Shown piece by piece: positions 47,088 to 48,433 of a stretch of 64,000 bases of DNA. The DNA is taken from the IMG/VR virus record IMGVR_UViG_3300050343_000214, positions 32,001-96,000 of that record. One strand, given 5' to 3'. The notes under the pieces were generated by a model. It saw only the letters and a program-made list of their open reading frames with translations, was not told the DNA's origin and searched no databases. Origin of the DNA: a virus. Position numbers and translations under genes: made by a program. Every line of letters begins with the position of its first letter. Position 1 is the first letter of the stretch.

Positions 47088-47547
47088 AATTGTGTCTTGC
47101 TCTAAAGTTTTTGCGTCTACCCGGATCGTTTTTCTTAATCTTCATGTTAGGATCACCAAAATTAACTTTGACTACATTGCCAGATCCGTTTTTGACATAA
47201 ACGCTTCTTTTCTTAGGACCATCAGGAGTTAAAAACGGTTTGCCTAACTTGACTTTACGCCCTTGGTATTCAGCCGCTTGAGTTTCTTCATTTTGTGCTT
47301 TTTTCCAAGCGTCTGGATCTGGCCTATCTTTGTCGCCCTTCTTGGCAGGCTTGTAGTTTTTCCCTTCTCTTTCCTTCTTCTTGCGAATATTTTCCCACAA
47401 AGAAGCAGCGTCATGTTCTTCTTCAGATTCGCCAAAGTCTTCATACTCTGCTTCTGCTGGAAGGTAGAAGTTTTCTTCTGTGAGTTCTTCTGTGAAACCA
47501 TACGTGTCTGTGGTATAAGCTTCATCTGCCTGATTGATTCTAGACAT
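47032..47547 (-). CDS. Conserved phage basic protein (FGDP...RARHNC...YWSC module)
   Basis: Acidic N-terminus and basic C-terminal module of a type recalled from other phages; GGAG RBS before MSRINQ. Confidence 0.6.
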   Translation of the reverse strand: MSRINQADEAYTTDTYGFTEELTEENFYLPAEAEYEDFGESEEEHDAASLWENIRKKKEREGKNYKPAKKGDKDRPDPDAWKKAQNEETQAAEYQGRKVKLGKPFLTPDGPKKRSVYVKNGSGNVVKVNFGDPNMKIKKNDPGRRKNFRARHNCDNPGPRWKARYWSCKAW

Positions 47548-48433
47548 TTGTAGTCTCCTGTTTAAGATCTTGGGATTGTTGTTCGACTGCCTGTATAGCA
47601 TAATTCATCATAGGAATAAGCTTTTCAGGAGGTAGCCGTTGGGAAAAATTATTAAATATTTGTTCGATCATTTTGTCGTTAGGGTCTCTGGTTATTTCAT
47701 ACCATCCTACAAAATAATTCCATATTCTGTCCTCTAATTTTAGAGGATATGCTACACCGTTAGGTCTAGAGAATCTATGCAGCCACTTAAATCCCGGTAC
47801 ACACATAGCCTCTCCACCAGCCCGTCTAAATTTTTCGTGTATGTAGCCTTCTTCTCCACCAAAACCCCTAAACAGTTCATTGAACCCTAGCCAGTTCTTA
47901 GTTTCGCAAGAAAACACTCCAAGTCCATGCATGGGTATCTTAAAAGGCTTTCCGGCTTCAAGGCCAGCATCATCTTTAGCCCATTTGCCATACATGTCGC
48001 CTCCCCAAGCAGGTCTAAAATGAGTTGCGCAGCCTTTTAAATTGTCGTACATCATTGGGCCTTGAACAATATCTTTGCAGTCTGGTTTAGTTTCATAATA
48101 TTCTAATAGGCTTTCTAATGAACCTTGTGGGAACATCACATGGCAGTCCATAGAAACACAGTATTTGCCTGTTGCGTTTTGAAAAATTAAGTTTCTGTTT
48201 GCGGTAGTTTGTTTTTCTGTGTATGGTATAAGTTTGACTGAATCTTTCATCCATCCTGACACCAAGCCCTCTATGGCTTTTCCATGAGCGCTATTAGGGT
48301 TATTGTCTATGACGATCAACTCCACATCACCACTTTTAACTAACTTATGATACATTTTCAATGACTGTAAAGAAAAATATACGCCATCAAAATCATCAAA
48401 GGTACACATTCCTATAGTTAATAATTTACTCAT
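47540..48433 (-). CDS. GT-A glycosyltransferase with polypeptide-GalNAc-transferase-like motifs
   Basis: IVIDN; NRN...ATGKY..SMDCHV (DxH); P..GLGVF; GFGGEE...AGG..CVP...HRF. Confidence 0.85.
   Translation of the reverse strand: MSKLLTIGMCTFDDFDGVYFSLQSLKMYHKLVKSGDVELIVIDNNPNSAHGKAIEGLVSGWMKDSVKLIPYTEKQTTANRNLIFQNATGKYCVSMDCHVMFPQGSLESLLEYYETKPDCKDIVQGPMMYDNLKGCATHFRPAWGGDMYGKWAKDDAGLEAGKPFKIPMHGLGVFSCETKNWLGFNELFRGFGGEEGYIHEKFRRAGGEAMCVPGFKWLHRFSRPNGVAYPLKLEDRIWNYFVGWYEITRDPNDKMIEQIFNNFSQRLPPEKLIPMMNYAIQAVEQQSQDLKQETTNV

Follow-up and report, generated by a model that had tools for sequence, protein, structure and literature searches.

A soluble glycosyltransferase of GT27 shape from an uncultured tailed phage that probably sugar-coats threonine-rich stretches of its own fibre proteins

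The DNA analysed here, called the window below, is a stretch of 64,000 nt (positions 32,001 to 96,000 of the IMG/VR virus record IMGVR_UViG_3300050343_000214), in which the gene at nt 47540–48433 encodes a glycosyltransferase (GT). On balance, we favour the view that this GT is a soluble, cytoplasmic, metal-dependent GT-A enzyme, shaped like the GT27 polypeptide GalNAc-transferases, which glycosylates threonine (Thr) tracts of the phage's own fibre and tail proteins. Its predicted fold suggests that it most likely works like a GT27 initiating enzyme and, because its relatives in phages and bacteria repeatedly adjoin Thr-rich proteins, it probably sugar-coats the Thr-rich stretches of the phage's own fibre proteins. 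At the same time, the GT is no GT27 member by sequence or architecture, since it has neither the anchor nor the lectin domain, carries the motif FGGEE and gives non-significant E-values.

The open reading frame (ORF) of the GT begins with an ATG, 7 nt downstream of the ribosome-binding site AGGAAAGG, and starts 12 nt past the stop codon of a PD-(D/E)XK nuclease gene. The catalytic motifs quoted for it in a preliminary description, made from the letters alone, were retrieved at the places given there (Table 1) and proved invariant across homologues. Indeed, in an alignment of 44 sequences, with members down to 40% identity, no substitution was observed at D96, H98, E194, E195, H199, H219, R220 and F221, and the same residues were kept in divergent homologues at 36–40% identity; given this invariance, the motifs are not a product of chance. 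In GT27 enzymes the DxH motif and the distal histidine are the Mn ligands. The Pfam domain Glycos_transf_2 (PF00535) was matched by residues 7–117 (E 1.2e-10; 42 bits, with the cut-off at 23.3), and by Pfam the protein files under GT2; the same domain also forms the N-terminal half of GT27 enzymes. Residues 172–213 gave a weak match, below the cut-off, to Glyco_transf_7C (PF02709; E 0.37, 10.9 bits against 23). The second motif of the GT, FGGEE, has Glu where the GT27 motif WGGEN has Asn. When the HMMER profile of the family was aligned with human GalNAc-T7 over this region, the family FGGEE fell on WGGEN of the enzyme (and on WGGED of the chondroitin polymerase K4CP), and the family W-L-H on its V-G-H. 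The alignment thus covers the stretch over which a parallel with GT27, distal histidine included, had been described, although as sequence the match is weak (E 0.043 and 0.53).

Neither a signal peptide nor a membrane anchor was found in the GT, the fold beginning at residue 5 and the maximum hydropathy over 19 residues being 0.95; a ricin/lectin domain is likewise missing, with no ricin Pfam match and a helical C-terminus. The earlier statement that the enzyme has no signal anchor and no ricin domain therefore holds, and the cytoplasmic location proposed along with it is consistent with the absence of anchor and signal.

The fold was modelled with AlphaFold2 from the 44-sequence alignment (pLDDT 95.5, pTM 0.92). 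Among the Foldseek matches of this model in the PDB, the best 48 or so listed were all GT27 polypeptide GalNAc-transferases, headed by GalNAc-T2 (6nqt; E 3.3e-14, TM 0.71). In a VIA-align search run all-against-representatives over 48,161 chains, GalNAc-T1 (8v9q) ranked first (Z 22.7, root-mean-square deviation 3.9, 271 residues aligned) and the GalNAc-T3 of T. gondii (TgGalNAc-T3, 8uhv) second (Z 22.4, 264 residues aligned), followed by the GT2 enzyme 6p61 (Z 18.5), RmlT (17.9), K4CP (17.8), TarP (17.1) and SpsA (16.6), with SunS at 13.8; GT27 leads every other family by about 4 Z units. As modelled, the catalytic domain has the GT27 architecture over its full length, and in both searches, made with independent aligners, it is GT27, and not the polysaccharide GT2 enzymes held out as the alternative in the preliminary description, that lies nearest. 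No sequence or structure of GT60, the other family named in that description, was recognised among the search results.

The family to which the GT belongs is large. More than 2100 near-length homologues were found in metagenomes, a full HMMER scan yielded 1674 cluster representatives, and relatives are encoded by 443 species genomes of GTDB and 491 contigs of IMG/VR. When 124 catalytic domains were arranged in a tree, the 57 viral rows and one contig of a metagenome-assembled genome (MAG) form a single clade (support 95–99), separate from the cellular forms. No match to the GT was obtained in PHROGs or NCBIfam, nor in a single-sequence PDB search with the whole protein or its C-terminal half. 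By tblastn, the 50,697 deposited phage records held no GT match at E 1e-5, two fragments only appearing at E 0.1–0.4; the BFVD search returned one true relative only, and no description of this GT family was found in the literature. In two divergent phage homologues (L252:1587-2732, minus strand; L253:8620-9648, plus strand) a Cys-rich, zinc-ribbon-like insertion of about 60 amino acids was observed between the equivalents of W151 and F164.

Bacterial homologues are 43–51% identical to the GT and, in 63 of 67 loci, are fused into a longer protein. The fusion partners above the Pfam cut-off are PqqD/RRE (33–50 bits against 23.4), GT25, a GT10 fucosyltransferase, a sulfotransferase and GalE, the last being a UDP-glucose 4-epimerase type scoring 182 bits; an HPr-kinase-like P-loop domain recurs below the cut-off (TIGR04352, E 7e-11), and TPR, LicD and methyltransferase fusions also occur. 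Among the bacterial neighbours, the commonest families are NTP_transf_5 (9 members when the ORFs from 27 loci are counted), sulfotransferase, radical SAM and PqqD. Lasso-peptide clusters are known to contain HPr-kinase homologues, nucleotidyltransferases and sulfotransferases as genes that tailor the peptide (PMC8498205), and fusions of an RRE with a GT2 domain have been observed but remain uncharacterised (PMC12710340). Because the bacterial homologues are fused to domains of peptide recognition and tailoring, the family as a whole would act on polypeptides; the GalE fusions, in turn, suggest a donor of the UDP-Gal/GalNAc type. The bacterial loci were also considered as lasso-peptide clusters, an assignment that was rejected as no lasso cyclase or protease occurred among the top neighbour families, and we describe them as peptide-tailoring-like only.

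Thr-rich proteins are repeatedly encoded next to the bacterial homologues. Taking as Thr-rich any ORF with 7 or more Thr in a stretch of 12 residues, or with two or more matches to [ST]T.[AP]P, 25 of the 678 ORFs within 6 kb of a bacterial GT qualified, from 23 of the 67 loci, many of them only 9–120 nt from the GT; in 400 kb of control sequence from four of the same genomes none did (0/431 ORFs, 0/20 windows). The corresponding Fisher p values, 7.6e-6 by ORFs and 1.1e-3 by windows, are indicative, the loci being interrelated and the control small. One neighbour recurs in 16 loci, often as tandem copies: a protein of 100–330 amino acids with a twin-arginine-like leader, a conserved segment ending in P-A-H-A and then Thr/Pro tracts. 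From these features, the bacterial loci look like a leader-guided glycoprotein system, possibly exported by the twin-arginine (Tat) route. Members of this leader-protein family (L008:4237-4911, L011:9060-12329, L009:2570-2884, L064:3981-4799 and others) share a conserved P-E-K-W-T-K-P ... L-P-A-H-A segment, adjoin HprK-like or PqqD-fused GT homologues, and come from Desulfobulbaceae (including cable bacteria), Arenicellales, Hyphomicrobiales and Chloroflexota.

The same pairing is seen in phages. In five other phage contigs, the GT homologue abuts or overlaps the gene of a poly-Thr protein. In L145, L147 and L148, one of which is a complete genome of 201 kb, a GT 58–60% identical to ours overlaps, at the stop codon, a gene whose protein contains very long runs of Thr, punctuated by AAP, PAP or APS. 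A divergent homologue is encoded in the fibre module of two complete genomes, separated from poly-Thr proteins by 35 nt in G011 and by 10 nt in G012, and in two phage-like MAG contigs the GT lies 16 nt from a poly-Thr protein of 1951 amino acids (L006) and 83 nt from one of 1778 (L002). Thr tracts of the kind found in the genome studied here are also present in the complete relatives G002 and G003.

In the 105.8-kb record from which the window derives, TT.AP (where the dot is any residue) was counted 15 times, whereas shuffling within proteins predicts 0.44 (maximum 4 in 300 shuffles), and the fibre genes of the phage are enriched in it about 30-fold. Most of the occurrences fall in large fibre-like proteins encoded upstream of the window. 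Three further stretches inside the window are candidate acceptors (Table 1). The preliminary description had placed the acceptor Thr in a TT-x-AP-like sequence, and this gains support both from the enrichment and from the gene context in bacteria and other phages.

Combining these observations, we infer which metal and donor the enzyme uses, what its acceptor is, when it acts and what the accompanying enzymes do. D96, H98 and H219 would bind Mn2+ together with the diphosphate of the donor, a UDP-sugar that is probably of the Gal/GalNAc type, and the GT would put the first sugar on Thr hydroxyls within Thr tracts broken by AAP, PAP or SAP. The substrates would be fibre and tail proteins of the phage itself, modified ahead of or in the course of assembly, and the three GT4 enzymes, the GT34-like enzyme and the FkbM methyltransferase encoded in the window could then extend and methylate the glycan. 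SDR sugar epimerases are encoded by all four of the complete relatives examined. The 560-amino-acid GT4 (nt 38371–40053) also shows a weak match to GT4-conflict (PF20706, E 0.0016), a family of conflict-system GT4 enzymes.

Table 1. Positions in the window of the glycosyltransferase, its motifs, its cassette partners, and candidate acceptors and accessory enzymes
Feature	Position (nt)	Strand	Basis or remark
GT27-like GT-A glycosyltransferase, soluble, 297 amino acids	47540..48433	-	Pfam PF00535, AlphaFold2 model, Foldseek, VIA-align
D96-C-H98 (DxH), presumed Mn2+/UDP-binding motif	48140..48148	-	Invariant, coordinates verified
G192-G-E-E195, counterpart of the Gal/GalNAc-transferase motif GGEN (GT27) or GGED (GT7, K4CP)	47849..47860	-	Invariant
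H219-R-F, distal histidine	47771..47779	-	Invariant; aligned to V-G-H of GalNAc-T7
Basic protein, 171 amino acids from second Met, pI 9.0	47032..47547	-	Start overlaps GT stop
DUF6356 small protein, one hydrophobic segment	46809..47087	-	PF19883 E 8.6e-13; hydropathy 1.73
Soluble PAP2-family phosphatase	46127..46825	-	PF01569 E 2.3e-11
FkbM-type methyltransferase, candidate sugar O-methylase	43292..43981	-	PF05050 E 2.4e-14
GT34/GT8-like transferase between two DnaE genes	41936..42619	-	PF05637 E 7.6e-5, at cut-off
GT4-type glycosyltransferase, candidate elongating enzyme	36275..37261	-	PF00534 E 8e-18
GT4-type glycosyltransferase, candidate elongating enzyme	37258..38196	-	PF00534 E 2e-10
GT4-type glycosyltransferase, candidate elongating enzyme	38371..40053	-	PF00534 E 8e-13
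TTIAP in tail-tube-like protein (135-1208), candidate acceptor	693..707	+	
TTAPP...TTAAP in 628-amino-acid structural-module protein (7971-9857), candidate acceptor	9054..9098	+	
Thr-rich C-terminal tail ending TTTSAPT of protein 22863-23678, candidate acceptor	23637..23678	+	

In the window, the GT belongs to an accessory cassette (GT, basic protein, DUF6356 protein and soluble PAP2 phosphatase) lying between the nuclease and the DnaE genes, and in the 80 closest viral loci it lies within a conserved block of nuclease, deoxynucleoside monophosphate (dNMP) kinase, primase, DnaB and DnaE genes. With the nuclease gene as anchor, a scan retrieved 56 related loci, 23 with the GT and 33 without; in the latter, the nuclease gene often abuts DnaE directly. 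The basic protein was present in all 23 loci with the GT and in 2 of the 33 without, the DUF6356 protein in 17/23 and 0/33, and PAP2 in 12/23 and 0/33. A role of the GT as a core replication or DNA gene was considered and rejected, the cassette being missing from 33 of the 56 loci despite its synteny with replication genes. The PAP2 phosphatase has no membrane segment, which is unusual for a phage, and is inherited only with the GT cassette.

In 44 of 45 distinct viral loci, the basic protein is encoded after the GT, at a distance of -28 to +17 nt. It has no Pfam match, and its AlphaFold2 model was mediocre (pLDDT 68) and gave no fold match, the best Z being 2.7; it was found in viruses only, and the Atlas lists viral hypothetical proteins only. 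It consists of three parts, one acidic, one rich in Lys and one a very conserved domain at the C-terminus that ends in W-S-C-K-A-W; among named clusters, DUF5872, DUF3721 and DUF5824 come nearest. In two loci (L229 and L201), Tat-signal DUF1501-like genes take the place of the GT as its coupled partner.

Several points weigh against Thr tracts of the phage's own fibres as the acceptor. No Thr-rich gene is adjacent to the GT in this window, nor in 76 of the 79 closest viral loci, and Thr/Pro linkers are common in fibres, glycosylated or otherwise. A complete relative free of the GT, which would serve as a negative control, is missing: among the relatives lacking the cassette, G011 and G012 have a divergent homologue at another place in the genome, and completeness of the other two records reaches only 51–58%. 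The record itself is of limited completeness (68% according to CheckV). The phage GT lacks a peptide-recognition domain, and the phage genomes yielded none either, a PqqD-like RRE (PF05402) having been retrieved neither in this record nor in four relatives. The statistics of the bacterial neighbourhoods, drawn from related loci and a small control of four genomes, are indicative only, and the proposed model leaves unexplained the roles of the cassette partners next to which the GT lies within the replication module. As regards the enzyme, similarity to GT27 is non-significant when taken from sequence alone (E 0.04–0.5), and the best sequence-level PDB match, obtained with the N-terminal half, is the wall-teichoic-acid GT2 enzyme TarP (E 1.8e-6). 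Finally, the GT has E195 in place of the GT27 Asn, and this residue is possibly a catalytic base. In inverting GT7 enzymes an Asp follows the conserved Glu. The stereochemical outcome is unreadable from the fold, because the position of E195 is occupied by Asn in GT27 and by Asp in the inverting K4CP; an inverting mechanism is possible for the GT, and an alpha-retaining one is uncertain.

Prophage TarP and Gtr systems modify host envelope glycans. The GT might likewise modify a glycopolymer of the host envelope or a lipid-linked acceptor (teichoic acid, lipopolysaccharide or a capsule precursor), thus blocking superinfection or altering receptors, with PAP2 and the small hydrophobic DUF6356 protein handling the lipid-phosphate carrier. 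The Pfam assignment to GT2, the sequence match to TarP and the co-inheritance of PAP2 and DUF6356 with the GT are all in line with such a role, and envelope-glycan genes are frequent in marine phages (PMC12801897). We nevertheless consider it unlikely: neither the GT nor the PAP2 protein has a membrane segment, the structure is nearer to GT27 than to TarP (Z 22.7 vs 17.1), and the homologues are fused to peptide-recognition and tailoring domains and adjoin Thr-tract proteins.

The polypeptide acceptor could also be other than a virion fibre, namely the co-inherited basic protein or a host protein, with a function in host take-over or genome packaging. The translational coupling of GT and basic protein in 44 of the 45 loci, their joint presence in 23 of 23, the position of the cassette among early/replication genes and an invariant Thr-Pro in the conserved C-terminal domain of the basic protein would fit this possibility. 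However, the basic protein also occurs without the GT, coupled to DUF1501 genes, the GT, for its part, is found beside poly-Thr proteins where the basic protein is absent, and no Thr tract is present in the basic protein, so that we regard this acceptor, too, as rather improbable. Least credible, to the point of being very improbable, is glycosylation of a hypermodified base in the phage DNA as a means of evading restriction, in the manner of the T-even glucosyltransferases. The GT gene does lie between those for the PD-(D/E)XK nuclease, dNMP kinase, primase and DnaE, and the neighbouring protein is very basic; yet no homologue of a thymidylate-synthase/hydroxymethylase, ThyX or C5-methyltransferase was found in this record and three complete relatives, the cassette is accessory, a homologue stands elsewhere in fibre modules, and the bacterial fusions point to peptides. 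A search for TET/JBP was empty, but its control was unmatched as well and the result is uninformative. DNA glycosylation is disfavoured.

Compared with the GT27 enzymes of known structure (GalNAc-T1 8v9q, GalNAc-T2 6nqt/2ffu and TgGalNAc-T3 8uhv), the phage GT superposes over the whole catalytic domain (271 of its 297 residues at Z 22.7) and shares with them the DxH, the distal histidine and a GGE-containing second motif at the same spacing. Both are associated with Thr/Pro-rich, mucin-like acceptors, an association known for the phage family from the gene context reported here. The phage enzyme differs in being cytoplasmic, without type-II anchor, stem or ricin lectin domain, in its prokaryotic/viral host, and in having FGGEE for WGGEN, with a sequence similarity to GT27 below significance. 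The inverting GT7 beta4Gal-transferases and the chondroitin polymerase K4CP (2z86) resemble it in the GGE(D/E) motif and the distal histidine, whereas their acceptors are glycans, their metal motif is DxD rather than DxH and K4CP scores lower in structure. TarP (6h1j), a prophage-encoded wall-teichoic-acid GlcNAc-transferase of GT2, is phage-borne too and resembles the GT in sequence over the nucleotide-binding half, but has DxD, a polyribitol-phosphate acceptor and a trimerisation domain, besides its lower structural score.

To our knowledge, glycosylation of phage virions has been shown only for a few mycobacteriophages, with unrelated enzymes. According to PMC12363180, mycobacteriophages attach sugars to proteins of their capsid and tail tube with their own GTs, and virion glycosylation by Che8 gp110 and Corndog gp38 is cited there from Freeman et al. 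2023. The two systems have in common soluble, phage-encoded GTs whose targets are, or here would be, structural proteins of the same phage, and in both the genome encodes several GTs along with a methyltransferase; the acceptors in the mycobacteriophages are C-terminal tails of capsid and tail-tube proteins, while the candidates here are long Thr tracts in fibre-like proteins, and the present GT has no detectable sequence relative in the 50,697 deposited phage genomes. Self-glycosylation of the phage particle is therefore a known concept, from which the present case differs in the enzyme family and the candidate acceptors. A further likeness is to the GTs of RiPPs and other peptides (SunS, 7msp; the RRE-GT2 fusions, PMC12710340; lasso tailoring with HPr-kinase, PMC8498205), the bacterial members being fused to PqqD/RRE and HPr-kinase-like domains and adjoining leader-bearing substrate candidates. 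By contrast, the phage enzyme stands alone without an RRE, SunS is structurally further away (Z 13.8), and the candidate substrates are Thr-tract proteins of 100–330 amino acids and not short peptides.

The phage, a marine one, is tailed, as a tape-measure gene is present, has a GC content of about 38% and represents an uncultured lineage: no relative was found by megablast against the deposited phage genomes, no cultured phage is close to the lineage by megablast or tblastn against them, and its DnaE is at most 32% identical to any deposited phage record. The DnaE polymerase is split in two genes on the minus strand of the window, one for PHP and NTPase/palm (nt 43968–45539) and one for fingers and HhH (nt 40393–41952), with the FkbM methyltransferase, an RNase T-type exonuclease and the GT34-like transferase between them; in some relatives, the N-terminal part of DnaE is one longer ORF that directly abuts the nuclease gene (L203). 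The DnaB helicase also occupies two ORFs on the minus strand, for the N-terminal (nt 52166–52699) and the C-terminal domain (nt 51214–51963), and is a single ORF of about 490 amino acids in relatives. Past the end of the window (G000:C1:96562-102450), Pro/Cys-rich and Gly-Ser-repeat ORFs were observed on both strands, together with a Hint-like protein, and in one ORF of this region R-A-P follows a run of Thr.

Mucin-type O-glycosylation counts as a process of the eukaryotic Golgi. A bolder reading, which we put forward tentatively and consider doubtful, is that the family, in prokaryotes and phages alike, shares true common ancestry with GT27 and performs mucin-type initiation, the transfer of the first N-acetylhexosamine to Thr in poly-Thr/Pro sequence, in the bacterial cytoplasm; in bacteria, the RRE would read a Tat-like leader before export, and in phages the outcome would be mucin-like glycan brushes on the fibres, possibly methylated or sulfated. 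What was found is a large uncharacterised family whose catalytic fold, as modelled, is that of GT27 and whose genes are paired with those of poly-threonine proteins in aquatic phages as well as in bacteria. If fibre Thr tracts are indeed its acceptors, the GT would be a simple soluble enzyme for the study and engineering of Thr-tract glycosylation, it would explain the Thr/Pro-rich linkers in the fibres of many marine phages, and it would open up a bacterial system in which leader recognition, a kinase, a sulfotransferase and several GTs are joined in single proteins.

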